Source: Gemmatimonadota bacterium (lineage in GTDB: Bacteria; Gemmatimonadota; Gemmatimonadetes; Palauibacterales; KS3-K002). Taken from it: a stretch of DNA of 64,000 bases. Location of the stretch: contig JBDHKD010000005.1 of assembly GCA_039586575.1 (NCBI GenBank), forward strand, positions 6,062 to 70,061, written 5' to 3'. Shown piece by piece: positions 23,931-36,232 of the stretch (its first letter is position 1; every line of letters starts with the position of its first letter). The notes under the pieces are model-generated. The model was not told where the DNA came from and made no database searches. It saw nothing but the letters and a program-made list of their open reading frames with translations. A program made the position numbers and the translations under genes.

Positions 23931-24455
23931 CTACTTATACCCCTGGGCGGGCCGAAAGTGGCCGGCTCTGTGAGAGCGGGCCAATTCGAGGTAGTCGCGC
24001 CAGGTGAGTTCGATGCGGGCGCGCAATTCGTCGTCCACCGATCGAACGAGTTTGGCGGGCCGGCCCATAACGAGGGAGCCGGCGGGAACGTGGGTGCCTT
24101 CGGTGATCAACGAACCGGCAGCGATGACGGAGCCGGTTTCGATGACGGCGCCGGAAAGCACGATGCTGCCCATGCCGACGAGGCAATCGTCCTCGATGAC
24201 GCAGCCGTGCAAGAGGGAGCGGTGCCCGACGCCGACGCGGGCACCGACACGCGTCGGGAAACCGGGGTCGATGTGGATGACGGTGTTATCCTGGATGTTG
24301 GTCTGCTCGCCAATGGTGATGGGCTCGATGTCACCACGCAGCACGCAGCCGAACCAAACGCTCGCCTCGCGTTCCAGGGTGACGCGACCGATGACCGTCG
24401 CACCTTCCGCGATGAAAGCGGAAGGGTGGATGGTGGGCGTGTGGTGTTTGGCCAT
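23931..24455 (-). CDS. Gamma-class carbonic anhydrase family protein (hexapeptide repeat, YrdA-like)
   Basis: 174 aa; left-handed beta-helix hexapeptide repeats with conserved His (…VIHIDPG…GHRSLLHGCVIEDDCLVGMGSIVL…). Confidence 0.9.
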   Translation of the reverse strand: MAKHHTPTIHPSAFIAEGATVIGRVTLEREASVWFGCVLRGDIEPITIGEQTNIQDNTVIHIDPGFPTRVGARVGVGHRSLLHGCVIEDDCLVGMGSIVLSGAVIETGSVIAAGSLITEGTHVPAGSLVMGRPAKLVRSVDDELRARIELTWRDYLELARSHRAGHFRPAQGYK

Positions 24456-24504: not shown

Positions 24505-26586
24505 TCACTGATGACTTGCGGCACGTTGGGCAAAGAACTCGCGAATACCGAGCAGCACACCGCGCGCGTACGCTTCCTGCCAAACCGGGTTCCGCAGGCC
24601 TGCTTCCTGGTCGGGCATCATCATGAAGGCACCCTCGGTGAGCGCGGCGGGCATCCAGGTGGGCCGCACGAGGGCGAGGCTGGCGCGGCCGAAGCCGAGA
24701 TCGCGGAGTCCCATCGTCACCAGCAGGTTGCGCTGTAGGGCGCGGGTCAGGTCGAGTGAGTGGCGCTGGAAGTAATAGGTGCTCGTGCCGTGGCGCTCGA
24801 ACGGGTTCACGCCATCCGGGAGCGCGTTGTTGTGGATGGAGATGAGCAATTCGGCGTCCAGCAGTTCTGCCAGGTACGTGCGGTCGTAGAGCCGCACGAC
24901 GCGGCGGTCGGCGCGGGTCAGGATTACCCGGGCGCCTTCCGCTTCCAATAGGCGCTTGAGCTTGAAGGCGATGGCGAGGTTGGTCTCTCCTTCGTAGAAG
25001 CGTGTCGGTCCGGTGGCGCCCGCCGGCGGGTGGCCGGGATCGACGACGATGGTGCGGCCCGCCAGCGGTTGCCCCGAATCGATGGGCGGCGGTTTGCGGA
25101 TCTCCAAGACGAGGCCGCCCGGCCGGGGACGGACGCGATAGCCCCAAGGCTCGGCCGCCAGATCGATGAGCAGCTGGTAGCGATCGGAAGTGACCTGCTC
25201 CCACCGGGCCGCGCTTAGGAACTCGTCGGCGGGGCCATACTGGAGCCAATCGGTATTCGAGTAGGCGCCGTACAATATGAGCGTCACACGCTTGCCATCG
25301 ACCTCGACCTTGTGGGGCACCGGCTCGCTGACCGACACGTTGACGTGCAGTCGATCGGGCGCGCCACTGAACCGCACGGTGCCGACCCGGGCGCGATCCG
25401 GCTGCCTGACGCCGGGCAACCAGCCGAGCTCGTCCGCGGCGACCCAGGCCTCGGTCTCCTGATCGAGGGCGAGGCGCACGGCTCCGTTGCGCCGGCCGCT
25501 GACGCGCGCCCGTACGCCGTCAGTCCACTGCCAGAAGGTCGTAGCGCCGATCCCGGCACGGCCGATGACGAAGCCGTCGCGGCCCACGCCGGAAGGTTCC
25601 TCGCGCAGCTCGACGACCGGCCCGCTACCTTCGAGGATCCACAGATCGAGCGGTAGCGGAGTGCGCGCCGTGTCGCCCGCGACGATGACCTCGAATCGGG
25701 CACACTCCTCCGCCACGACCCAATCGGGGACATCCAGTTCGCCGGCAGGCGCGGGACCCTCACCTTCAGGCAGCTCGGGGATCGAATCGGCTGCGACGTC
25801 CAGCATGTCCGTCGCGGCGCTATCCAGTGGCTGCGCTGGCGGTGGCGGCGCGCAGTAGTGGATGAGATCCGGGAGCCCCGCCGGCAGCGGCGGCAGCGCC
25901 GGGCTCAGCCTCCCCCGGCCCACCGGCGACCGCGCCACGAGTTCCCCCTCGTAGATCCCCGTCCCGAGCGAGGCGGAGCCCGTACCCATCGGGATCCGAC
26001 CGAAGATCCAGTTCGCCGCCGCGCTCGTCCCCTCGACATTGCCGCTCTCCGCCAGCGGCACCCACTCGCCATCCGGCAGGACGAGCCGCACCCGGGCACC
26101 CGGCGCGGCACGCACGCGCAGCGGGATCGTCTCACCTTCGCGCACCCACCAGGCACCGGCTGGCGATGCGCTTTCCGGATCGACCGCAGCCGAGTCGGAC
26201 GGCAGCGGCGCCAGCGGTCGCGGCAGGAATACCGCGTGAAGCTTACTCACCCGCTGTGAGCCGGCGGCCGCCAGCAACTCGTAGTACGCCACGGTGTCGT
26301 TCGCCGCCGCCGGAACCGGCAGCCAGGCGATGAATGCGCCGTTCGGCTCGACGCGTACGCCGTAGCCGTTGATGGTCAGCCGGGCGTTCCCGTTGCCGAC
26401 CGAGCCGAAGATGAAGTTGGAGTCGCGGGCGGTGATGAAGCTCGAGTCCCGCGGGTAAACGACATCGATGGCTAGCGGGCCATCGTGGAATGGAACCGGT
26501 GGCGGGCCGGTCACCTCGGGTGCGCGGGCAGCGCAGCCGGTGCACGCAAGTGCAAGGCAGGCGAGCCTCGCGACGTCTCGCCCCAT
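24505..26586 (-). CDS. Periplasmic lipoprotein with C-terminal N-acetylmuramoyl-L-alanine amidase (Amidase_3) domain and a large N-terminal domain of unknown function
   Basis: Start set at MGRDVARLACLALACTGC (lipobox; ATG at 26584-26586). C-terminus IVVDPGHPPAGATGP…LISIHNNALPDG…LTEGAFMMMPDQE are Amidase_3 motifs. Confidence 0.85.
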   Translation of the reverse strand: MGRDVARLACLALACTGCAARAPEVTGPPPVPFHDGPLAIDVVYPRDSSFITARDSNFIFGSVGNGNARLTINGYGVRVEPNGAFIAWLPVPAAANDTVAYYELLAAAGSQRVSKLHAVFLPRPLAPLPSDSAAVDPESASPAGAWWVREGETIPLRVRAAPGARVRLVLPDGEWVPLAESGNVEGTSAAANWIFGRIPMGTGSASLGTGIYEGELVARSPVGRGRLSPALPPLPAGLPDLIHYCAPPPPAQPLDSAATDMLDVAADSIPELPEGEGPAPAGELDVPDWVVAEECARFEVIVAGDTARTPLPLDLWILEGSGPVVELREEPSGVGRDGFVIGRAGIGATTFWQWTDGVRARVSGRRNGAVRLALDQETEAWVAADELGWLPGVRQPDRARVGTVRFSGAPDRLHVNVSVSEPVPHKVEVDGKRVTLILYGAYSNTDWLQYGPADEFLSAARWEQVTSDRYQLLIDLAAEPWGYRVRPRPGGLVLEIRKPPPIDSGQPLAGRTIVVDPGHPPAGATGPTRFYEGETNLAIAFKLKRLLEAEGARVILTRADRRVVRLYDRTYLAELLDAELLISIHNNALPDGVNPFERHGTSTYYFQRHSLDLTRALQRNLLVTMGLRDLGFGRASLALVRPTWMPAALTEGAFMMMPDQEAGLRNPVWQEAYARGVLLGIREFFAQRAASHQ

Positions 26587-26711
26587 CGTCACAGCTCGCT
26601 CCTCTGCGACCGCCCCAAGAAACTCTCGCTCATCACGGTCCGGCAATGTACGACCCCCGTTCCCCACCGGTCAAAGCGGCGAGCGGGCCGGGGCACGGCC
26701 ATCCCTGTGAC

Positions 26712-28442
26712 CTATGCCGACCGAGCGCGGGCGGAGGATCGGCCGAGGAGCACGTATGCCACCACCGCCGCAGTCAGCGCGGCGCCAGCGCGTCCCCATG
26801 CACCGAGGACCAACCACCCCACGCCGAACAGCAGGGCGAAGAGCAGCACGATCCCCAGAATGCCGGACCGGACGTCGGCGCCGAGATCCTGGAGCGGGGC
26901 GAGACCCGTCGCCTCACGCTGCCGCCGCCAGCCGGGGCCGCCCGGTCGAGTACGACGGTAGAACTCGGCCAGCGTTTTCTCCGACTCGGGCCGGGTGAGC
27001 AGCATGGTGGGCAGCCAGACCGCCAGCGAGCCGAACGCCGTCACCGCCAGCCGTACGCCGAAGTCGACCTCGCCGACGGCGGGCAAGTAGGACAGGACCG
27101 CGATGAGCATACCGGCGACCATCGCCGCCAGCTCGGCCCAAGCGTTCACCCGCCACCAGAACCACCTCAGGATGAGCACCGCGCCCGGCCCCGTCCCGAT
27201 GGCGATCATGAAGCGGAACACGGTGCCGATATCCTGGGCGAAGAAGGCGGCCATCGCCGCCAGGGCCACGATGACGACGGAAGCCAGGCGGCCGACCAGC
27301 ACCTTCTCCTTGTCGTTGGCCTCAGGGTGTGCCCAGCGGACGTAGAGGTCGTTCACGACGTAGGAGGCGCCCCAGTTGATGAGCGTCGAGACCGTCGACA
27401 TGAAGGCGGCGAGGAACGAGGCGATCACCAGCCCGAGGAGGCCCGCTGGCAGGTAGTCGAGCATCAGCTGGATGTAGCCGATCTCGGGATCGGCGAGCGT
27501 CGGGTAGAGGATGAGCGCGACGAGCGCGACGACGAGCCACGGCCAGGTGCGCACCACGTAGTGCATCAGGTTGAACAGCCAGGCCGCTTTCTGCGCATCC
27601 GCTTCCGTCTTGGAGGCGATGAAGCGCTGGATGAACTGGCCGCCGCCATCGGTGTTCCTGAACGCCCACCACTGGATGCCGATATAGGCGAGGAACGTGG
27701 TCATCGACAGCTGGGCGACGTCGGACCAGGGCATGAAGTCCAGCCGGTCGCTCAAGCCCCGCTCCCCCAGCGTTGCCTTGATGCCGGCGATGCCGCCGAC
27801 ATCGGGCAGGGCGAAGGCGACGACGATGAGCGCGCCGACCAAGGCGAGCACGAACTGGATGAAGTCGGTGGCGACCACGCCCCAGAGGCCGGCGAGCCCG
27901 GCGTAGACCAGCACGAAGACCGAGAGAGCGACGACGATCCACAGCCGCGGCTCGCCGGGCAGATCGATGGCGAGTGCATCCCAGAGGCCCAGCGCCTCGA
28001 TCACCTTGCGCATCGCCAGCATCGCGTAGCCCATGCCGATGCAGTTGATCGGGACGGCGAAGATGAAGGCGCGGAAGCCGCGCAGCAGCGCCGCCGGCTT
28101 GCCGCCGTAGCGCAGCTCGCAGAGTTCGACGTCGGTGACCACCTCGCTGCGCCGCCATAGGCGGGCGAACAGGTAGATCATCAGGACGTGGGTGATGGCG
28201 AACGCCCACCACTCCCAATTGCCGGCGATGCCGCGGCGGGCGACGAGCCCGGTGACGTAGAGCGGTGTGTCGACGCTAAAGGTGGTGGCGGCCATCGAGG
28301 TGCCGGCAAGCCACCAAGGCAGCGCGCGGCCGCCGACGAAGAACTCGGCGAAGCTGCGGGCGCCGCGGCGCGAGAACCAGAGGCCGAGGCCCAAGGTGCC
28401 GACGAGGTAGGCCCCGATGACGAGCCAGTCGAGCGCGGTCAT
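26712..28442 (-). CDS. Sodium:solute symporter family (SSF) transporter; MurT-like candidate (anhydro-)MurNAc/muropeptide importer
   Basis: 576 aa, ~13 TM helices, SSF signature regions. Embedded between the amidase and nagZ with 4-bp overlaps. The functional inference rests on context and on the known SSF-family MurNAc transporter MurT of Tannerella. Confidence 0.8.
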   Translation of the reverse strand: MTALDWLVIGAYLVGTLGLGLWFSRRGARSFAEFFVGGRALPWWLAGTSMAATTFSVDTPLYVTGLVARRGIAGNWEWWAFAITHVLMIYLFARLWRRSEVVTDVELCELRYGGKPAALLRGFRAFIFAVPINCIGMGYAMLAMRKVIEALGLWDALAIDLPGEPRLWIVVALSVFVLVYAGLAGLWGVVATDFIQFVLALVGALIVVAFALPDVGGIAGIKATLGERGLSDRLDFMPWSDVAQLSMTTFLAYIGIQWWAFRNTDGGGQFIQRFIASKTEADAQKAAWLFNLMHYVVRTWPWLVVALVALILYPTLADPEIGYIQLMLDYLPAGLLGLVIASFLAAFMSTVSTLINWGASYVVNDLYVRWAHPEANDKEKVLVGRLASVVIVALAAMAAFFAQDIGTVFRFMIAIGTGPGAVLILRWFWWRVNAWAELAAMVAGMLIAVLSYLPAVGEVDFGVRLAVTAFGSLAVWLPTMLLTRPESEKTLAEFYRRTRPGGPGWRRQREATGLAPLQDLGADVRSGILGIVLLFALLFGVGWLVLGAWGRAGAALTAAVVAYVLLGRSSARARSA

Positions 28443-29902
28443 CGGGTCGGGCCGGGGATCAGATGCTCGGCCACTGCCTCCTGCATGAGCGGGTCACCGC
28501 CCCAGGCGCAGAGGACATTCAACGCGGCGGGAAACTGAGCGGCGAGCCGCGGGTGGCCGAACAGCACGACGGTCGCAGCGGGCCGTTCCTCGAGGACGCA
28601 GTTCACCTCACGCGCCTTATCGGCCGCCAGCCACGACCGTCGCTTCCAGCCCCTTACATCCGAGAAGATGGCGAGCAGGTCGATGGCTGGGTCGAGCGAC
28701 CGGGGCTGAAGCAGCCGGGCGCCGCGCTCCTCGAGGCCGAGTCTTAGGCGGCTGCGGTCCAGCACCGCCGTGCCCGGTCCGGCCAGCGCCTCAGGCAGCT
28801 CCACGACATCGTCATCGATCACATGCAGGCGAAAGGCCTGCCGGGGGAGCGGGTGCGGGGGCGAGCCGCGCAGCGTTCGGATCGACGCGGCAGCCAGCTC
28901 CAGCGCCCGGGCGTAGCTCGGCACCGGTGCCCAGTCCTCAACCGCCAAGTCCGCGGTACGGGCGGCGATCTCGACGCGCTCCATGGACCTGGCGACCTGA
29001 CGTCCGTCGAGATGCTTCGACTCGAGCGCGGCCTTGAGCGCGGCGATGGTGTCGCCGGGCGATGACGGGTAGAGCAGGACATCGCAGCCGGCTCGCACCG
29101 CCTCGACCGCGGCGCCCGTCTCGGTGAGCCCCGTGGCCGTCAGGCCCGCCATGATCAGAGCGTCGCTGGCGACCAGGCCGTCGAACTTCAGCTCATTACG
29201 CAAGAGGCGGACGATCTTCCGCGAGAGGCTGGCCGGCTTACCCGACGGGTCGAGCGCCGGATAGGCGACGTGAGCGAGCATGACCGAGCTGACCTCCGCC
29301 TCGATCGCGGCGCGGAAGGGTGCGAGATCGGCTTCCAACGTCTCGCGCGTCCATCGGACAACGGGCAGCTCGGTGTGGGAGTCGGTCGTCGTACGCCCGT
29401 GGCCGGGGAAGTGTTTGGCGCAGGCGTGAATGCCCTCGTCCTGGACGGCCGTCACCCAGGCGCGCACGCGATCGGACACCGACGCCGCATCGGACCCGAA
29501 GCTCCGGGTCCCGATGATCGGGTTCAGCGGCTCGGCGTCCAGGTCGGCGACCGGACCGAGCACCCAGCCGACGCCGGCCGCCGCCGCCTCCTGCGCCGTC
29601 AGCCGCCCGGCCTCGGCCACCGCCTGATCGCCGATCCTCGCCAGCGCCGCCGCTGGCGGCAACGGCGTCGCCTCCTCGAACTGCTGGCCCGCCCCGCGCT
29701 CCAGGTCGGCAGCGAAGAGGAGCGGTCGGTTCTCACGCTCCAGCGCGCGAGCCACCAGCTCACGCATCCCGCTAACGCCGCCACCGAAGACGACGAAGCC
29801 ACCCACGCCTTGGTCGAGCGCGTGCCGCACCTCGGGCCACACTCTGTCGACGCTGCGCTCACCCCAGCGGATCACCGGGAAGACGAGGCGAGCCGGGTTC
29901 AT
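28439..29902 (-). CDS. nagZ: Glycoside hydrolase family 3 beta-N-acetylhexosaminidase (NagZ-like) with C-terminal extension
   Basis: 487 aa; KHFPGHG…D motif region typical of NagZ (…IHACAKHFPGHGRTTTDSHTELPVV…SDALIMAG…). Confidence 0.85.
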   Translation of the reverse strand: MNPARLVFPVIRWGERSVDRVWPEVRHALDQGVGGFVVFGGGVSGMRELVARALERENRPLLFAADLERGAGQQFEEATPLPPAAALARIGDQAVAEAGRLTAQEAAAAGVGWVLGPVADLDAEPLNPIIGTRSFGSDAASVSDRVRAWVTAVQDEGIHACAKHFPGHGRTTTDSHTELPVVRWTRETLEADLAPFRAAIEAEVSSVMLAHVAYPALDPSGKPASLSRKIVRLLRNELKFDGLVASDALIMAGLTATGLTETGAAVEAVRAGCDVLLYPSSPGDTIAALKAALESKHLDGRQVARSMERVEIAARTADLAVEDWAPVPSYARALELAAASIRTLRGSPPHPLPRQAFRLHVIDDDVVELPEALAGPGTAVLDRSRLRLGLEERGARLLQPRSLDPAIDLLAIFSDVRGWKRRSWLAADKAREVNCVLEERPAATVVLFGHPRLAAQFPAALNVLCAWGGDPLMQEAVAEHLIPGPTR

Positions 29903-31041
29903 GGCGGGGTCAGCTTGCCCAATAGGCGGGGCCCGCGGGCGCCGGTGACGGACGGCAGGTTACCCGGCCTCCCGGTCTGGAACAGGTGAGCGAGGATGGC
30001 GAAGGCGGCCGCCTCCTTGGCGTCGGGGTCCCAGCCCAGCGCCGAGAGATCGGTCACGGGGATCGCCGCCAGCGATTCCGCCAGCATCTGCATGAGCGCC
30101 GGGTTACGGGCGCCTCCACCCGAGACGATGCATTCGGCCGGCTGCGCATCGCCGCTGAACAATTCGGCGAACGCGCCGGCGATGGTCAGGGCGGTGAGCG
30201 CCGTCGCGTTGGCGACGAGATCGTCATCGGAGAGCCCCAGCTCTCGCCCCTGCCGTACCAACTCCCTGGCGTAGGCCATGCCGTAGCGCTCGCGGCCCGT
30301 CGACTTGGGCGGCTGCCGCCGGAAGTACTCGTCATCGAGCAGTCGGGCCAGTAGGTCATCGCTGACCCGGCCACGTGCGGCGCGCCGACCGTCCTCGTCG
30401 TAGCGCTCCGCCCCATCGCTCACGATCTCCACCACCGCATCGATCACCGCCACGCCGGGGCCGCTGTCGAACGCCAAGACGGGCGCGCCGCTCCCCTCCG
30501 GCGGCAGCAGCGTCACGTTGGCCATCCCACCGATATTCTGGAGCGCACGCCAGGCGTCGGGGATCGAGAAGAGCAGTTGATCGATCAGCGGCACGAGTGG
30601 CGCACCGTGCCCGCCCGCCGCCACATCGCGAGCCCGGAAGTCGGAAATCACCGGTACACCCAGCCGCTCGGCGATCACTGCGGCGTCACCCAGCTGCAGC
30701 GTTGCACCCAGCGCCTCTGCCGTCGGCGGCTCGTGCCAGAGCGTCTGGCCGTGCGAGCCTACGGCGGCCAGCTCATCCGGCGACAGGCCGGCGCCTTCCA
30801 GCAAGGCCAGCGCCGCGTCGGCGAACCAGCCACCCAGCTCGACGTTCAGGCGACACAGCTCGCGCGCTCCACCGTCGAGCGCCCGCTTGATAGTGGCGCG
30901 CTGCTCCGGCGTATAGGGTATGGAGACGAACGACTCGACGAACGCGCCCAGCCCGCCGTCCCGCTCCTCCACCTGAACCAGCGCCACATCGACGCCGTCC
31001 AGGGAAGTCCCCGACATGAGTCCCAGGTATCGGAAGGTCAA
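29899..31041 (-). CDS. anmK: Anhydro-N-acetylmuramic acid kinase
   Basis: 380 aa; N-terminal YLGLMSGTSLDGVDVALV motif diagnostic of AnmK. Confidence 0.9.
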   Translation of the reverse strand: MTFRYLGLMSGTSLDGVDVALVQVEERDGGLGAFVESFVSIPYTPEQRATIKRALDGGARELCRLNVELGGWFADAALALLEGAGLSPDELAAVGSHGQTLWHEPPTAEALGATLQLGDAAVIAERLGVPVISDFRARDVAAGGHGAPLVPLIDQLLFSIPDAWRALQNIGGMANVTLLPPEGSGAPVLAFDSGPGVAVIDAVVEIVSDGAERYDEDGRRAARGRVSDDLLARLLDDEYFRRQPPKSTGRERYGMAYARELVRQGRELGLSDDDLVANATALTALTIAGAFAELFSGDAQPAECIVSGGGARNPALMQMLAESLAAIPVTDLSALGWDPDAKEAAAFAILAHLFQTGRPGNLPSVTGARGPRLLGKLTPP

Positions 31042-31045
31042 CGCG

Positions 31046-32485
31046 CTATGGGTTGACGAGACGCCGAATCGCCTCGAGGTGAAAGTGATCGTGATCCACG
31101 ACGTGCCGCATCAGCTGGTAGATCGAGATCGGCCCGAAAGCCTCGTGCCGGCCCCGGTGCTCCCACGCGGTGGCGGCGGCGCGCTCCAGCCGGGCGGCCA
31201 GCGCGGCGCGGCTCGCCGCCCAGCGCTCGAGCAGCTCGGCGACCGGCGTCTCCCGCGCACCACCCTCGAGAATCTTGCGGTTCTCTACGTCGTCGTCGCG
31301 ATCGGCCAGGGTCGGCTCGTCCAGGGAGAGCATCGCCACGAGACGCTCAGCGAAGAACGCGTCGCCCTCGATTAGGTGCTGAATCTGTTCTTTCACGCAC
31401 CAGGAGTCCGCGCTCGGCCGGTGGCTCAGCGCATCGTCCGATAAGCCGGCGACCACGGCCGCGAGCCGGCCCGGCGACTCGCGGACCGCCTTGCTGACCA
31501 GCCCACGCGACTCGCCGTCCGGCGGCGCCGCCGGGTAGACCGCGTAGGGGTTCTTCGCCTTGCCGATCGCCTCGGCGTGCTCCAGCGCCAGGCGGACGAA
31601 GCCGCCCGACTCCGCCAGGTAGAGCGCGGCAAGCTCGCTGCTCGAGCCGGCCAGCTCCATCACCACTGCCAGCTTTACCGAGCCGCCAGCCGCCTCGATC
31701 AATGGCAGCGCCTGCTCACGGCTGCAGCCCGTCGCCGCCATCACGATGCGCGCGCTGCGATCGATCAGCTTGTCGCTCATCGCCTGCAGGTCGACCATCA
31801 GGTTCCCGTAGACTTTGCCCAGCCGGATCATCGCCCCGGTGGTCAGCGTGTTGAGGACGAGCTTGGTCGCTGTGCCCGCCTTCATGCGAGTCGAGCCGGC
31901 AACGACCTCGGGCCCGACCAGCGGGACCACGCACACATCGACCAGCTCACGCATCTCCGCGCCGGGCTCGGTGCAACACAGGAAGCCGGTGCGGGCCTCG
32001 CGCTCCGCCGCCCGCGCCAGCGCGGCACGCACGTACGGTGTAGTACTCGACGTCGCGATGCCGAAGACGAAGTCGTCGGGGCCGACCCCCGCTTCGTCGA
32101 TCGCCGCCGCGCCATCCTCGATCCGGTCCTCGGCACCCTCCTGGCTGCGGGTAAGAGCCGGCAGACCGCCGGCGATGATACCCTGGACCATCTCGGGATC
32201 GGAGCCGAAGGTGGGCGGACACTCGGTGGCATCGAGCACGCCCAGACGCCCACTCGTCCCCGCACCTATATAGATGAGGCGGCCGCCGCGTTTGAAGCAG
32301 TCGACCGCGATCTCGATAGCTTCTGCGATTCGCTCGCGCTCCGCCTGCACCGCCTTCGGCACATCGCGGTCTTCCGCGTTGATCAGGTCGACTATCCCCA
32401 GCGGCAGCGCGAGGTCGATGTCCCTGGTCCGCGGGTTACGCTGTTCGGTCAGCCGGGAATCGAAGAGGTCGTCGCTCATAAGCAC
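31046..32485 (-). CDS. murQ: N-acetylmuramic acid 6-phosphate etherase (MurQ, SIS domain) fused to a C-terminal DinB_2-like domain
   Basis: The first ~300 aa are MurQ-like (…IYIGAGTSGRLGVLDATECPPTF…GSTRMKAGTATKLVLN…). The last ~170 aa carry DinB/YfiT-like His motifs (HRPSADSWCVKEQIQHLIE… HVVDHDHFHLEAI). Confidence 0.85.
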   Translation of the reverse strand: MLMSDDLFDSRLTEQRNPRTRDIDLALPLGIVDLINAEDRDVPKAVQAERERIAEAIEIAVDCFKRGGRLIYIGAGTSGRLGVLDATECPPTFGSDPEMVQGIIAGGLPALTRSQEGAEDRIEDGAAAIDEAGVGPDDFVFGIATSSTTPYVRAALARAAEREARTGFLCCTEPGAEMRELVDVCVVPLVGPEVVAGSTRMKAGTATKLVLNTLTTGAMIRLGKVYGNLMVDLQAMSDKLIDRSARIVMAATGCSREQALPLIEAAGGSVKLAVVMELAGSSSELAALYLAESGGFVRLALEHAEAIGKAKNPYAVYPAAPPDGESRGLVSKAVRESPGRLAAVVAGLSDDALSHRPSADSWCVKEQIQHLIEGDAFFAERLVAMLSLDEPTLADRDDDVENRKILEGGARETPVAELLERWAASRAALAARLERAAATAWEHRGRHEAFGPISIYQLMRHVVDHDHFHLEAIRRLVNP

Positions 32486-32594: not shown

Positions 32595-33782
32595 ATGGAG
32601 CTACTCTCCCGAGCCAACGAGCTCGCTACCGAGCTCACCGAGATCCGGCGCGACATCCACGCGCACCCCGAGCTCTCGTTCCAAGAGACCCGCACCGCCG
32701 CACTGGTCGCCGAGCGACTCAAGAGCCTGGGCTACGCGGTGCGGACCGGCGTCGGCCTCACCGGTGTGATCGGCGAGCTGGGGAGCGGCGAGGGACGCCG
32801 GGTCGCGCTGCGCGCCGACATGGACGCGCTGCCGATACAGGAGGCCAACGACGTTGCCTACCGCTCGCAGCGGGACGGCGTCATGCACGCCTGCGGACAC
32901 GACGCCCACGTCGCCTGCCTGCTGGGGGCGGCCAAGCTGCTGGCGGAAAGTGCGGAGCGCGGCATGCTACCAGCGGGTCGGGTGCGGCTGATCTTCCAGC
33001 CGTCGGAGGAGACGACCGACGTCGAGAACATGAGCGGCGCGCAGCGGATGATTGCCGATGGCGCAATGGAGGGCGTCGATACGGTCCTCGGTCTACACGT
33101 CGCCGCCGAATCGCCGGCCGGTACGGTGCTTTTCCGCAGCGGCCGACTGATGGCCGGCAACGATACTCTCTTCGGCACCGTCGGCGGCGCCAGCGCGCAC
33201 GCCGCCCTACCCCACGAGGGTCAGGACGCCGTGTTGCTCGCTAGCCATGTCGTGCTCGCCGTGCAGGCGATCGTCGCCCGTCGTATCGATCCGCTACTAC
33301 CGGCGGTCATCACCTTCGGTAAGATCGCAGGCGGGACCGCCGAGAACATCGTGTCGAGCGAGGTCCGGCTCGAGGGCACACTCCGCTACTTCGACAACCA
33401 TGTTCGCGACAAGCTCCACGAGGAGCTGCGACGCGCCTTCGCCGTAGCCGACGCCATGGGCGGCGCCGGCACCGTCGAGATCCGGCCCGGCTACCCGCCG
33501 GTCATCAACGACGCCCGGCTCACTGAGATGGTTCGGGCCGCGGCGCGCTCGCTGGTCGGCGAAGCGGATGTGGCAACCGCCGACCTGATCATGGGCGCCG
33601 AGGACTTCGCCTTCCTGGCCCGCGAAGCGCCCGGCTGCTTCTTCTGGCTAGGCGCCGGCATCGAGGGTGATCGGCGCCACCACCACTCCCCCCGCTTCGA
33701 TATCGATGAGAGCTGCCTGACCCGCGGCGCCGCCGTGCTGGCGGCGGCGGCTCAGACGGTGCTGGCCGAATGGTACCGGTGA
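32595..33782 (+). CDS. M20D-family amidohydrolase (N-acyl-L-amino acid amidohydrolase/hippurate hydrolase-like)
   Basis: 395 aa; …HPELSFQE…MHACGHDAH…GGTAENI… are motifs of peptidase M20D. Confidence 0.88.
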   Translation: MELLSRANELATELTEIRRDIHAHPELSFQETRTAALVAERLKSLGYAVRTGVGLTGVIGELGSGEGRRVALRADMDALPIQEANDVAYRSQRDGVMHACGHDAHVACLLGAAKLLAESAERGMLPAGRVRLIFQPSEETTDVENMSGAQRMIADGAMEGVDTVLGLHVAAESPAGTVLFRSGRLMAGNDTLFGTVGGASAHAALPHEGQDAVLLASHVVLAVQAIVARRIDPLLPAVITFGKIAGGTAENIVSSEVRLEGTLRYFDNHVRDKLHEELRRAFAVADAMGGAGTVEIRPGYPPVINDARLTEMVRAAARSLVGEADVATADLIMGAEDFAFLAREAPGCFFWLGAGIEGDRRHHHSPRFDIDESCLTRGAAVLAAAAQTVLAEWYR

Positions 33783-34486: not shown

Positions 34487-36232
34487 ATGCGGCGCCTCAG
34501 CCTCCTCCTCGCCCTCATCACCGTGGCGGCCTGCGCCCCGCCGCCAGGGCCCGGTGCGGGCGGAGCGCCCGGTGTGGTCTTCCCGTTCGACTGGGAGTTC
34601 CGGGGGCTCGACCCCACCGGCACCGGGACCCAGGGGATGGTGGCCACCACCGACGTGCGGGCCACACGCGTCGGTGTGGAGATCCTGCAGGCCGGCGGTA
34701 ACGCCGCCGATGCGGCGATCGCCGTGGCCTTCGCGCTCGCCGTGGTACACCCAGCGGCCGGCAACATCGGCGGCGGTGGTTTCGCCGTGGTCCGGCTGAC
34801 CGACGGCGAAACGGCGGCCCTCGATTTCCGCGAGATGGCGCCGCTGTTGGCGATGCCCGAACGGTTCCTGGACGAGACGGGCAAGCCCACCGACGCCTCG
34901 GTGCTCGGCCATCTGGCCTCCGGTGTACCGGGCTCGGTAGCAGGGCTCTGGGAGCTGCACAAGCGTTTCGGCTCGCTCCCCTGGGCCGACCTCATCGCTC
35001 CGGCCATCGACCTGGCGGAGAACGGCTTCACCGTCAGCGAGCGGTTCCATAACGGGCTCGCCGGCAAGCGGACGGCGTTCGCCGACTTCGAGACCACCCA
35101 GCAGATCTTCTACCCCGGCGGCGAAGCACCCCGCGTCGGTTCCACCTTCCGGCAACCGATGCTCGCGCGCACGCTCCGGTTGATCGCCAACGAGGGCAAG
35201 GCGGTGTTCTACAGCGGGGTCATCGCCGACATGATCGTCGACGAGATGCGCCGGAACGGCGGCCTGATCACTCACGAGGACCTGCGACGCTACAGCGCGC
35301 GCTGGCGTGACCCGATCACCTTCGAGTACCGCGGCCACACCATCATATCGATGCCACCGTCCTCGTCGGGCGGCGTGACGATCGCCGAGGCCCTGAACAT
35401 CCTCGAGGGCTACAACCTGCGCGAGCTGGGGTTCGGCTCGGCAGACGCCATCCATCTTATCGCCGAGGCCTTCCGTCGCGCCTTCGCCGACCGCAACTAC
35501 TACCTGGGCGACCCCGACTTCGTGGAGATGCCGGTCGAGCGCCTGATCAGCGACGAGTACGCCGCGGAACTGCGCGCCGGCATCTCACGCAGCCGCGCTT
35601 CGCCATCCGAACAGTTCAACCGCGTCCCCGTACTGAACGAGGGGTCGAATACCACGCACTTCTCGGTGGTCGACGGGCAGGGTAACGCGGTATCACTGAC
35701 CACCACGATCAACTCGGGCTACGGTTCCGGAGTCGTCGTGGCGCGGGCCGGCTTCTTCCTCAACAACGAGATGGACGACTTCACGTTGCGCCCCGGCTAC
35801 GCGAACCAGTTCGGGCTCGTGCAGAGCGAGGCGAACCTGGTGGGCCCCGAGCGACGGATGCTCTCCGCCATGACCCCGACGATCATACTCGACCCGCAAG
35901 GCGAGCTGCGGATCGTCGTCGGCTCGCCGGGCGGCCCACGGATTATCACCGCGGTCGCGCAGGCGATCATCAACGTCATCGACTTCGGGATGGACGTGCG
36001 CTACGCTGTCGACGCGCCGCGCATTCACCATCAGCTGCTGCCGGACGAGATCCAGTACGAGAAGAACGGCATCGACGACAGAACCGTTTCGCTGCTGCAA
36101 GGCTTTAGGCATTCGCTCTCGCACAAGCAGTATTACTTCGGCGACGTTCAGATGATCGTCCGGGCGCCAGACGGAACGCTGTACGGAGCGTCCGACCCGA
36201 GAAGCGAGGGCGGTCGGGCGATCGGCTACTGA
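34487..36232 (+). CDS. ggt: Gamma-glutamyltransferase (secreted)
   Basis: 581 aa; signal peptide; …GGNAADAAIA…GNIGGGGF…TTHFSVVD (catalytic Thr)…GSPGG… are GGT motifs. Confidence 0.93.
   Translation: MRRLSLLLALITVAACAPPPGPGAGGAPGVVFPFDWEFRGLDPTGTGTQGMVATTDVRATRVGVEILQAGGNAADAAIAVAFALAVVHPAAGNIGGGGFAVVRLTDGETAALDFREMAPLLAMPERFLDETGKPTDASVLGHLASGVPGSVAGLWELHKRFGSLPWADLIAPAIDLAENGFTVSERFHNGLAGKRTAFADFETTQQIFYPGGEAPRVGSTFRQPMLARTLRLIANEGKAVFYSGVIADMIVDEMRRNGGLITHEDLRRYSARWRDPITFEYRGHTIISMPPSSSGGVTIAEALNILEGYNLRELGFGSADAIHLIAEAFRRAFADRNYYLGDPDFVEMPVERLISDEYAAELRAGISRSRASPSEQFNRVPVLNEGSNTTHFSVVDGQGNAVSLTTTINSGYGSGVVVARAGFFLNNEMDDFTLRPGYANQFGLVQSEANLVGPERRMLSAMTPTIILDPQGELRIVVGSPGGPRIITAVAQAIINVIDFGMDVRYAVDAPRIHHQLLPDEIQYEKNGIDDRTVSLLQGFRHSLSHKQYYFGDVQMIVRAPDGTLYGASDPRSEGGRAIGY

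Follow-up and report, generated by a model that had tools for sequence, protein, structure and literature searches.

An operon on the minus strand of a Gemmatimonadota MAG, analysed here in a 64-kb stretch of DNA (the window), probably serves to salvage peptidoglycan turnover products that contain 1,6-anhydro-MurNAc, with a member of a sodium:solute symporter clade as its permease (probability about 0.65). Its order is murQ (fused to DinB_2), anmK, cytoplasmic nagZ, a 576-aa SSS/SSF symporter, and a lipoprotein Amidase_3. The gene neighbourhood and a conserved Na2 site make it similarly probable that the symporter imports a MurNAc-type peptidoglycan sugar for NagZ, AnmK, and MurQ. We found no published description of such an operon in the literature.

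Gene layout and enzyme identities

All five genes named in the preliminary description were found in position on the minus strand by family models and sequence (Table 1), and the enzyme identities given there for murQ, anmK, and nagZ are borne out by family models and motifs, with both AnmK and MurQ exceeding their NCBIfam equivalog cut-offs. The claim that the operon is unusual has to be reversed for this phylum: murQ-anmK-nagZ-SSF is retained in 12–13 of 14 independent Gemmatimonadota loci (clade A, SSF 56–90% identical), where it is the rule. Given this recurrence, the gene arrangement is more than chance.

Table 1. Features of the operon and its surroundings in the window.
Feature	Position	Strand	Evidence
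Gamma-carbonic-anhydrase-like hexapeptide-repeat protein	23931..24455	-	PF00132; NF050158 176 bits, below cut-off 250
Lipoprotein N-acetylmuramoyl-L-alanine amidase (Amidase_3)	24505..26586	-	PF01520 108 bits; AF2; Foldseek
Amidase_3 catalytic domain	24541..25050	-	
Amidase signal peptide	26542..26586	-	lipobox LALAC
Sigma-70-like promoter match	26645..26674	-	TTGACC, 18 nt spacer, TACATT; consensus match only
SSS/SSF-family Na+:solute symporter, candidate peptidoglycan amino sugar importer	26712..28442	-	PF00474 107.5 bits
SSF clade signature	27147..27176	-	LILRWFWWRV
SSF Na2-site S349/T350	27393..27398	-	aligned with vSGLT Ser364/Ser365
nagZ-type GH3 beta-N-acetylglucosaminidase	28439..29902	-	PF00933 227 bits; NagZ motif; NF003740 (NagZ equivalog) 170 bits, below cut-off 207
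NagZ Asp-His signature, aa 163-176	29375..29416	-	KHFPGHGRTTTDSH (motif form KHFPGHGxxxxDSH)
anmK, anhydro-N-acetylmuramic acid kinase	29899..31041	-	NF007148 442.8 bits, cut-off 387; PF03702 357.9 bits
murQ-DinB_2, MurNAc-6-phosphate etherase with C-terminal DinB_2 domain	31046..32479	-	TIGR00274 346 bits, cut-off 302; NF003915 373.7 bits; PF12867
DinB_2 domain, aa 335-473	31067..31483	-	PF12867 65.8 bits
SIS domain	~31565..32479	-	
M20D amidohydrolase, divergently transcribed	32595..33782	+	TIGR01891 358 bits, cut-off 154
Gamma-glutamyltransferase (GGT)	34487..36232	+	TIGR00066 563 bits

The 4-bp overlaps claimed for anmK/nagZ and nagZ/SSF can be read straight off the sequence as ATGA at both junctions, and the proposed translational coupling holds. 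Between the murQ stop TAG and the TTG start of anmK lie 4 nt; this TTG is chosen because the conserved N-terminal YLGLMSGTSLDG needs it. The murQ gene begins with ATG and encodes 477 aa, as does its orthologue in the closest relative, L003, the only locus that shares the DinB_2 fusion. NagZ bears a C-terminal extension of ~170 aa; its N-terminus, MNPARLVFPVIRW, has no hydrophobic leader, and the enzyme is predicted to be cytoplasmic because it has no signal peptide.

The amidase gene lies about 120–125 nt beyond the SSF gene and starts at ATG 26586 or, according to public gene callers, at GTG 26592 (695 aa). Its product combines Ig-like beta-sandwich domains (aa 35–217 and 297–390), a disordered Pro-rich linker, a beta-sandwich (aa 399–497) that in the model may be read as AMIN-like, and the catalytic domain; Pfam detected no AMIN domain in the amidase. 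The top Foldseek match of the AF2 model (pLDDT 85.7, pTM 0.84) is E. coli AmiC (4bin), with 350 aligned columns in which a beta-sandwich domain precedes Amidase_3. Unlike AmiC, the window amidase is a lipoprotein and has three Ig-like domains more, as well as the Pro-rich linker. The catalytic domain, which is short (about 183 aa), matches CwlV, LytH, and a C. difficile amidase (TM 0.86–0.89), and its better fit to the CwlV/LytH type than to AmiA/AmiB suggests that the modelled enzyme lacks an autoinhibitory helix. The full-length architecture is kept at 42% identity in Longimicrobiales, and the amidase gene stands directly after the SSF gene or within 11 kb of it in nine of the 14 clade-A loci. 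The gap between the two genes contains a promoter-like site matching 9 of 12 consensus positions (2 sites in the region, 0.6 expected), so the amidase may have its own promoter. The amidase lies where the preliminary description placed it, but its dedication to recycling is an inference: its architecture resembles that of AmiC and is of the septal, cell-separation type, and it may be transcribed separately. For the same reasons, peptide stripping before import is not secured, and the enzyme may not be dedicated to this pathway.

Among the divergent neighbours of the operon, GGT is the best conserved in Gemmatimonadota, lying ~4.5–10 kb upstream of the SSF gene in 10 of the 14 clade-A loci. It is also found upstream of the SSF gene in L085, which belongs to Gemmatimonadota but groups in clade B (other lineages), and in Rhodothermales L079; in L030-32 and L035-37 it is on the strand opposite to murQ, ~2 kb upstream of that gene. 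An accessory role for it is possible. The M20D amidohydrolase is conserved beside murQ only in L001, L003, and L011, and its possible role as an accessory for peptide or acyl-amino-acid processing is a weak link. The hexapeptide-repeat gene begins 49 nt downstream of the amidase gene, which it also follows in L003, L010, and L015; whether it belongs to the operon unit is uncertain.

The symporter and its gene context

The SSF protein is a member of an uncharacterised clade of ~580 aa within the sodium:solute symporter (SSS, TC 2.A.21) family. It had no match among NCBIfam equivalogs and scored below the cut-off of TIGR00813 (sss). The best PDB sequence match was vSGLT (E = 5.5e-27), with SGLT1, SGLT2, and SiaT next, and the top folds for the AF2 model (pTM 0.81) were SGLT2, SGLT1, SiaT, and vSGLT with TM-scores of ~0.7. 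The model gives ~15 helices (13 core helices and a C-terminal hairpin) rather than the 13 TM helices counted previously. With vSGLT, SGLT1/2, and SiaT the protein shares the LeuT fold and a Na2-site Ser/Thr on the equivalent helix; the Ser/Thr is conserved, and A346, M348, S349, and T350 are family-invariant. However, identity to these transporters is just ~20–23%, and the protein differs from them by an extra C-terminal segment, which holds a conserved cytoplasmic FYxRxRPGGxGW motif and two further TM helices, and by the RWFWWR motif specific to its clade. Its best sequence and fold matches place the protein with the sugar transporters of the SSS family.

The preliminary idea that this transporter feeds NagZ, AnmK, and MurQ is upheld by linkage conserved across deep Gemmatimonadota lineages and by similar neighbours in other phyla. 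The clade-A loci contain AnmK (13), MurQ (12), NagZ (12), and the long amidase (9), and 10 of 12 share 4 or 1 nt between the GH3 stop and the SSF start. In clade B, 17 of 49 loci are linked to such genes (GH3 in 13, BadF/BadG kinase in 9, MurQ in 4, AnmK in 2). In clade-B loci L004, L051, and L081, an ATGA precedes the aligned SSF start by two codons, and in L004 the 4-nt overlap is confirmed by public gene calls. Further clade-B neighbours are MurA-like (L066, L082) and GlcD/GlcF-like, of the D-lactate-oxidase type (L076).

Proposed pathway and alternatives

In the pathway that we propose, lytic transglycosylases and the periplasmic AmiC-like Amidase_3 lipoprotein would release peptide-free GlcNAc-1,6-anhMurNAc, which the symporter would import on the Na+ gradient, as gene context and the conserved Na2 site suggest. 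Cytoplasmic NagZ would then remove GlcNAc, AnmK would open the anhydro ring and phosphorylate the sugar to MurNAc-6-P, and MurQ would convert this to GlcNAc-6-P and D-lactate. For the last three steps, the enzyme identities come from family models and motifs, and the activities are taken over from the E. coli pathway. For the preliminary claim that the symporter acts instead of AmpG, the analysis shows that the 64-kb window and +/-10 kb around 87 related loci have no AmpG or AmpD; elsewhere in the genome, AmpG, AmpD, or a further importer may be encoded.

Within the general claim of MurNAc-type import, we tentatively favour the disaccharide GlcNAc-anhMurNAc as substrate, at somewhat under even odds, because NagZ is predicted to be cytoplasmic. 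It is rather unlikely that the symporter instead brings in free anhMurNAc or MurNAc, with NagZ serving disaccharide-(peptides) that enter by another permease (AmpG/ABC) encoded elsewhere; such import would share the general claim and contradict the disaccharide detail. MurT is a precedent for an SSS-superfamily MurNAc importer, the substrates of the nearest structural relatives are monosaccharides or sialic acid, and in Streptomyces sp. SAT1 an SSS of a different, 490-aa clade adjoins anmK in the absence of nagZ. Against this stand the translational coupling of nagZ and the SSS gene, seen in almost every clade-A locus and also in other phyla, the leaderless NagZ, and the finding of no AmpG or AmpD homologue at E <= 1 in the window or within +/-10 kb of 87 related loci. 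Gemmatimonadota clusters with a lipoprotein GH3 could free monosaccharides in the periplasm, but they use additional, different SSS paralogues: the GH3 is a lipoprotein in clusters that also hold a 490-aa SSS-kinase pair, and cytoplasmic in the window, L003, L008, and L051. This difference in localisation between cluster types argues that the substrate of the window symporter still needs NagZ inside the cell.

It is improbable that the symporter imports GlcNAc or chito-oligosaccharides for amino-sugar or chitin use, with NagZ as a chitobiase and the proximity of anmK and murQ due to general amino-sugar clustering. Across the SSS clade, no other neighbour is nearly as common as GH3 (21 of 87 loci), NagA-like genes adjoin the SSS gene in L051 and L066, and the gene contents of chitin and peptidoglycan pathways overlap (PMC10194020). 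Yet in clade A the SSS gene is accompanied by AnmK and MurQ in particular, neither of which takes part in chitin use, the window cluster contains no NagA, NagB, NagK, or chitinase, and in Acidobacteriota the neighbours (MurQ, MurA-like, and D-lactate-oxidase-like) speak for MurNAc. Least probable of all is an unrelated solute (amino acid, vitamin, or monocarboxylate) with operon position as phylum-specific synteny of no functional meaning: public annotations do read 'Na+/proline symporter', no curated family model assigns a substrate, and two thirds of clade-B loci and all 22 cyanobacterial orthologues (47–62% identical) have none of these peptidoglycan genes nearby, but PutP and PanF models score just 41–60 bits, the nagZ stop/start overlap persists down to 56% SSF identity and is re-found in other phyla, and MurQ, AnmK, and GH3 associations occur independently in Acidobacteriota, Nitrospirota, and one further lineage.

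Comparison with known recycling systems

The recycling genes of E. coli are scattered, unlike those of the window, which form one operon. The E. coli route (AmpG, NagZ/AmpD, AnmK, MurQ) contains the same three cytoplasmic sugar enzymes; since NagZ (with its Asp-His motif), AnmK, and MurQ are shared, the chemistry from GlcNAc-anhMurNAc to GlcNAc-6-P and D-lactate should match. The differences concern the other components: AmpG, an MFS permease, is driven by protons ('muropeptide:H(+) symporter'), whereas the sole transporter of the window cluster is a LeuT-fold Na+ symporter, a lipoprotein Amidase_3 is present instead of AmpD (Amidase_2), and MurQ carries the extra DinB_2.

In the MurP/NagZ/AmiE/MurQ system of Bacillus subtilis (cf. 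PMC5061867), an amidase trims muropeptides outside the cytoplasm before sugar import, and MurQ acts last. Extracytoplasmic amidase trimming and MurQ as final step are likewise proposed for the window. In Bacillus, however, NagZ is secreted and MurNAc enters through a PTS (MurP), which phosphorylates it, whereas in the window NagZ is predicted to be cytoplasmic, the candidate importer is an SSS protein, and AnmK would phosphorylate the anhydro sugar.

The MurNAc importer MurT of Tannerella forsythia is a member of the superfamily of sodium symporters (PMC5790795) and is encoded in one operon with MurQ (PMC5790795, PMC7670621). The window resembles this MurT-MurK-MurQ arrangement in having a transporter of that superfamily in an operon with MurQ. 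T. forsythia, however, pairs MurT with MurK, a BadF/BadG-family MurNAc 6-kinase, in the absence of AnmK, whereas the window contains AnmK together with NagZ and lacks a BadF/BadG kinase. In Gemmatimonadota, the SSS proteins paired with BadF/BadG kinases form the different ~490-aa clade, ~25% identical to the window protein. The label "MurT-like" is therefore apt at the level of the superfamily and not more closely, since pairing of the murT-murK type belongs to that other clade; MurT itself was compared by description.

Importers of muropeptides or peptidoglycan sugars other than AmpG also occur in other lineages that retain the recycling enzymes. Agrobacterium tumefaciens uses YejBEF-YepA and has kept the recycling enzymes (PMC9790009), and an ABC system adjoins anmK-murQ in D. 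radiodurans (locus L098). Both are ABC importers that run on ATP and include a binding protein, in contrast to the single-component, ion-coupled symporter of the window.

To our knowledge, all characterised SSS substrates are small solutes or monosaccharides, so that import of a 478-Da disaccharide would have no precedent in the SSS family. Sugar import by this symporter, if true, would mean that an SSS protein fills the role that usually falls to AmpG, a permease unrelated to it.

Gene content and layout of the operon

The operon is real and conserved. The preliminary description placed five minus-strand genes at 24505-32485, and family models and coordinates bear out all of them (see the table). 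The 4-bp start/stop overlaps that it reported at the anmK/nagZ and nagZ/SSF junctions both read ATGA in the sequence, and the TAG stop of murQ is followed after 4 nt by the TTG start of anmK. The gap between the symporter gene (SSF) and the amidase gene is about 120 nt long and contains a sigma-70-like match. Two terminator-like matches lie within the operon, a number below chance expectation. The murQ/M20 and SSF/amidase gaps have no convincing operator-like inverted repeat, and the window, with a GC content of about 64-71%, has no tRNA or Rfam element.

Coordinates of the operon genes, their neighbours and features of compared loci (L numbers denote fetched loci; all other coordinates refer to the window)
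Feature	Coordinates	Strand	Support
gamma-Carbonic-anhydrase-like hexapeptide-repeat gene	23931..24455	-	
Amidase_3 lipoprotein	24505..26586 or 26592	-	PF01520 108.4 bits
SSS/SSF symporter	26712..28442	-	PF00474 107.5 bits (gathering threshold 22.8)
GH3 / nagZ	28439..29902	-	PF00933 227 bits
anmK	29899..31041	-	NF007148 442.8 bits (cut-off 387); PF03702 357.9 bits
murQ	31046..32479	-	TIGR00274 346 bits (cut-off 302)
DinB_2 domain, C-terminal in MurQ	31067..31483	-	PF12867 65.8 bits
M20D amidohydrolase	32595..33782	+	
gamma-Glutamyltransferase	34487..36232	+	
anmK-SSS gap, Longimicrobiales	L001:7990-9868		
SSS fused to NTP_transferase domain, then GHMP kinase	L005:1406-5346		
~490-aa SSS and BadF/BadG (MurK-type) kinase	L042:1303-3727	-	adjoining genes
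Divergent murQ and SSS, GlcF-like and GlcD-like genes	L076:3942-9320		
SSS and annotated anhydro-N-acetylmuramic acid kinase	L097:5944-9000		

In E. coli, NagZ, AnmK and MurQ turn GlcNAc-1,6-anhMurNAc into GlcNAc, GlcNAc-6-P and D-lactate, and the window operon would have this chemistry in common with the AmpG pathway. The TIGR00274 match of MurQ covers residues 12-302 and profile positions 2-291 of 291, passing the equivalog cut-off. The additional DinB_2 domain, from a four-helix-bundle, thiol-transferase-like superfamily, is not included in the MurQ family definition; among the fetched loci the fusion occurs only in the closest relative, L003 (CP070812.1), and the MurQ of Longimicrobiales has 306 aa and lacks the domain. 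Residues 7-16 of AnmK, GLMSGTSLDG, fit the nucleotide-binding motif GxMSGTSxDG.

The GH3 protein carries KHFPGHGRTTTDSH at residues 163-176, the NagZ-specific signature with its Asp-His dyad; we take KH(F/I)PG(H/L)Gx4D(S/T)H to be the family signature bearing the catalytic dyad. The same motif is found in the GH3 neighbours of L003, L004, L008, L051, L088, L043 and L058. The window protein stays under the NagZ equivalog cut-off (NF003740, 170.1 bits vs 207) and has a C-terminal extension of about 170 aa that is absent in single-domain NagZ. Because it combines the NagZ-specific motif with an N-terminus devoid of any hydrophobic leader, it is, as judged from its sequence, a cytoplasmic NagZ-type enzyme.

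The amidase, which is matched at 100% identity by a protein of the NCBI assemblies GCA_039587075.1 and GCA_041548365.1, has the lipobox LALAC at Cys15 (GIAAC in the Longimicrobiales orthologue). Its catalytic domain occupies only the last ~180 residues (~183 aa) of a multidomain lipoprotein of ~695 aa. The ~500 N-terminal residues have no Pfam hit, yet they are confidently folded in the AlphaFold model (pLDDT 85.7), which contains Ig-like sandwiches, a disordered Pro-rich linker (aa 235-290), an AMIN-like domain undetected by the Pfam sequence search, and the short Amidase_3 domain. The best whole-chain Foldseek match is AmiC (4bin, 350 columns); the catalytic domain itself superimposes better on the short CwlV, LytH and C. 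difficile domains (TM 0.86-0.89) than on AmiA/AmiB (0.66-0.79). In the regulated AmiA/B/C type, an autoinhibitory helix blocks the active site until EnvC/NlpD relieves it; the better fit to the short domains suggests that the window enzyme may lack such a helix. The model thus points to an AmiC-like architecture, that is, an exported protein with an AMIN-type beta-sandwich before Amidase_3, and the full architecture is essentially confined to Gemmatimonadota (364 hits, E <= 1e-10). Its role could be that of a general septal amidase, which would do no more than provide denuded glycan. The hexapeptide-repeat gene 49 nt downstream is found at this place in L003, L010 and L015 too, with no functional link to the operon apparent.

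The transporter clade and its genomic linkage

The symporter is 91% identical to proteins from Gemmatimonadota MAGs, and the best protein matches assign the whole window to a MAG of this phylum. It scores 133 bits against TIGR00813, under the cut-off of 184, and none of the curated family models assigns it a substrate. By sequence, its closest solved relatives are vSGLT (E = 5.5e-27), SGLT2, SGLT1 and the sialic-acid carrier SiaT; the AlphaFold model (pTM 0.81) has a LeuT-type fold with TM of about 0.7 to SGLT2, SGLT1, SiaT and vSGLT, and contains about 15 membrane helices rather than the 13 first proposed. Residues S349/T350 align with the Na2-site Ser364/Ser365 of vSGLT, inside the family-invariant motif A-x-M-S-T, and this conservation of Na2-site residues makes Na+ coupling plausible.

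Judged by sequence, the protein belongs to a large and well-delimited SSS (TC 2.A.21) clade of ~580-aa proteins, comprising 858 clusters at 50% identity (E <= 1e-30), typically of 560-630 aa. Clade members share the signature [ILV][LMA]RW[FYL]WWR[IVT], and their C-terminus is extended by a conserved FYxRxRPGGxGW segment and two additional helices. In L005, the clade member P0179 (871 aa) carries a fused NTP_transferase domain, and a GHMP (GalK-like) kinase comes next; this arrangement resembles a sugar-1-kinase plus nucleotidyltransferase salvage module joined to a transporter.

Linkage was surveyed in 87 loci encoding members of this clade, searched with the window proteins. In the NJ tree, 14 Gemmatimonadota loci with SSF proteins 56-90% identical form one clade with the window (clade A). 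AnmK is present in 13/14 of them, MurQ and NagZ in 12/14 each, and the long amidase in 9/14. Of the 12 loci with NagZ, 10 have a GH3 stop codon that shares 4 or 1 nt with the start of SSF. The more distant clade B (49 loci, 39-47% identical) includes Acidobacteriota, Planctomycetota, Nitrospirota, Poribacteria, Rhodothermales, Gemmatimonadota paralogues and others. GH3 adjoins SSS in 13 of these loci, and ATGA-type GH3/SSS junctions recur in L004, L051 and L081. The gene order is AnmK-(radical SAM)-GH3-SSS in L008 and GH3-SSS-NagA-like in L051 (Nitrospirota); L066 and L082 (Terriglobia) have GH3/SSS/MurQ/MurA-like genes with NagA-like present or absent. In L076 (an Acidobacteria MAG), divergent murQ and SSS genes lie beside GlcF-like (CCG/Fe-S) and GlcD-like (FAD_binding_4) genes, and D-lactate, one product of MurQ, is a plausible substrate of these putative oxidases.

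A rough estimate (12 kb in ~4 Mb) puts the chance of MurQ or AnmK lying within a few kb of SSS at well under 1% per locus; since both enzymes are single-copy, their proximity to SSS in several phyla is far above chance.

The sister group of clade A is cyanobacterial (47-62% identical) and includes marine Synechococcus and one Prochlorococcus; searches with the window proteins found no linked genes at these loci. The orthologues of the marine picocyanobacteria (L039, L045, L049, L053 and L059) are 47-50% identical. One is from a Prochlorococcus SAG whose locus has a GC content of 40.5% and is not of the high-light clade, and the others are from marine Synechococcus.

Several neighbouring genes were also recorded. 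In L001 (Longimicrobiales) the anmK-SSS gap holds a 416-aa protein without a Pfam hit and an opposite-strand gene of 202 aa; the former was considered as a divergent GH3 and rejected, both being unrelated to GH3. Ten of the 14 clade-A loci, and likewise L085, a Gemmatimonadota locus grouping in clade B, have a gamma-glutamyltransferase gene within ~4.5-10 kb upstream of SSF; in L030-L032 and L035-L037 this gene is encoded on the other strand, ~2 kb upstream of murQ. The M20D amidohydrolase is kept beside the operon in three loci. It is a matter of speculation that these two enzymes could process released stem peptides, which hold a gamma-D-Glu bond.

Relation to AmpG, MurT and a second symporter clade

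Among the steps of peptidoglycan recycling, import is conserved least, and the known importers are AmpG, MurP, MurT, Opp/MppA and, since 2022, YejBEF-YepA. The window transporter is a LeuT-fold SSS protein, not an MFS protein, and hence is not a member of the AmpG family, although it could work like AmpG. With E. coli AmpG as query, tblastn gave no match at E <= 1 in either the window or any of the 87 SSF loci, and an AmpD-type amidase is absent from the same set. The preliminary description had the symporter in place of AmpG, a conjecture given the local scope of this search. Parallels to such a putative change of importer are YejBEF-YepA in Agrobacterium (PMC9790009) and, in Deinococcus, an ABC system beside anmK-murQ. 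In the D. radiodurans locus L098, the partners of anmK-murQ are a GntR regulator and, in divergent orientation, an ABC importer; in Thermomicrobium roseum (L099), murQ-BadF/BadG occurs with an annotated beta-N-acetylhexosaminidase, AnmK and NagA. The partners at these two loci illustrate non-orthologous replacement of the import step.

The operon logic resembles that of murTKQ in T. forsythia, the MurK of which is a kinase of the BadF/BadG family and a member of PF01869 (PMC5790795). The preliminary description, whose gene identities and translational coupling hold, called the transporter MurT-like. The likeness stands at the superfamily level, both being sodium symporter superfamily proteins, but it does not extend to pairing with a BadF/BadG kinase: there is none in the window, where MurQ is accompanied by AnmK instead. 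That pairing belongs to a second SSS clade, of ~490 aa, often found in the same neighbourhoods, whose members are 44-50% identical across phyla and ~25% identical to the window protein. A BadF/BadG kinase directly follows the ~490-aa SSS gene in eight Gemmatimonadota loci (L042, L043, L046, L058, L073, L075, L081 and L088). These clusters also hold a GH3 enzyme and a ~600-aa SSS of clade B, so that each has two SSS paralogues. The GH3 enzymes of the Gemmatimonadota kinase clusters carry a lipoprotein signal; sugars would therefore be set free before import, outside the cytoplasm, and enter as monosaccharides. By analogy of gene neighbourhoods, MurT-type transporters are more likely to belong to the ~490-aa clade, and the window protein is a different paralogue.

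Neither SSS clade, used as query, retrieved a protein of Tannerella or one of Bacteroidota in a MurT context (Tf_MurT is Tanf_08375), and a profile search with the ~490-aa clade returned Gemmatimonadota-type proteins only. By tblastn of plasmid records we obtained SSS genes of Bacteroides, Parabacteroides, Spirosoma and Persicobacter, all of them outside a murK/murQ context, as well as an Indioceanicola match in an unannotated record. On a plasmid of Streptomyces sp. SAT1 (L097, NZ_CP016083.1), an SSS gene whose product shares 43% identity with the ~490-aa clade precedes a gene annotated as anhydro-N-acetylmuramic acid kinase; this is an SSS-AnmK pairing in an actinomycete.

Substrate and significance

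On strong comparative-genomic grounds, the ~580-aa SSS clade is predicted to import a peptidoglycan amino sugar. The nature of this sugar is where two readings compete. The serious alternative is a monosaccharide, anhMurNAc or MurNAc, in keeping with the small substrates of characterised SSS proteins. Against it, NagZ is cytoplasmic and co-translated with the permease, and clusters with a periplasmic GH3 use other SSS paralogues; for these reasons the disaccharide is favoured. We tentatively propose, with a probability of about 0.3, that the ~580-aa clade is a Na+-driven permease for GlcNAc-1,6-anhMurNAc that replaces AmpG in Gemmatimonadota; by way of the orthologues of 47-62% identity, the replacement would extend to Cyanobacteria, marine Synechococcus and low-light Prochlorococcus among them.

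Under the disaccharide proposal, the amidase and lytic transglycosylases would yield peptide-free GlcNAc-anhMurNAc in the periplasm, the SSS protein would bring it in with Na+, and NagZ, AnmK and MurQ would then process it. The extracellular peptide trimming of Bacillus resembles this route.

The novelty lies in the transporter clade and in its association with AnmK and a cytoplasmic NagZ; our literature search, of incomplete coverage, found no paper that ties an SSS protein to AnmK or anhydro-muropeptides. The occurrence within one phylum of clusters with cytoplasmic NagZ and of clusters with lipoprotein GH3 and a kinase is a natural experiment on disaccharide versus monosaccharide import by each SSS paralogue. 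If the disaccharide reading is true, the SSS family would gain its first carrier of a disaccharide or muropeptide, and several AmpG-poor phyla the importer missing from their peptidoglycan recycling pathways. If the clade imports cell-wall sugars, a very large group labelled only 'sodium:solute symporter' or, wrongly, 'Na+/proline symporter' would gain a function, SSF would be a simple single-gene candidate, and the entry point of recycling or necromass scavenging would be identified in the abundant soil and marine phyla Gemmatimonadota, Acidobacteriota and Cyanobacteria.
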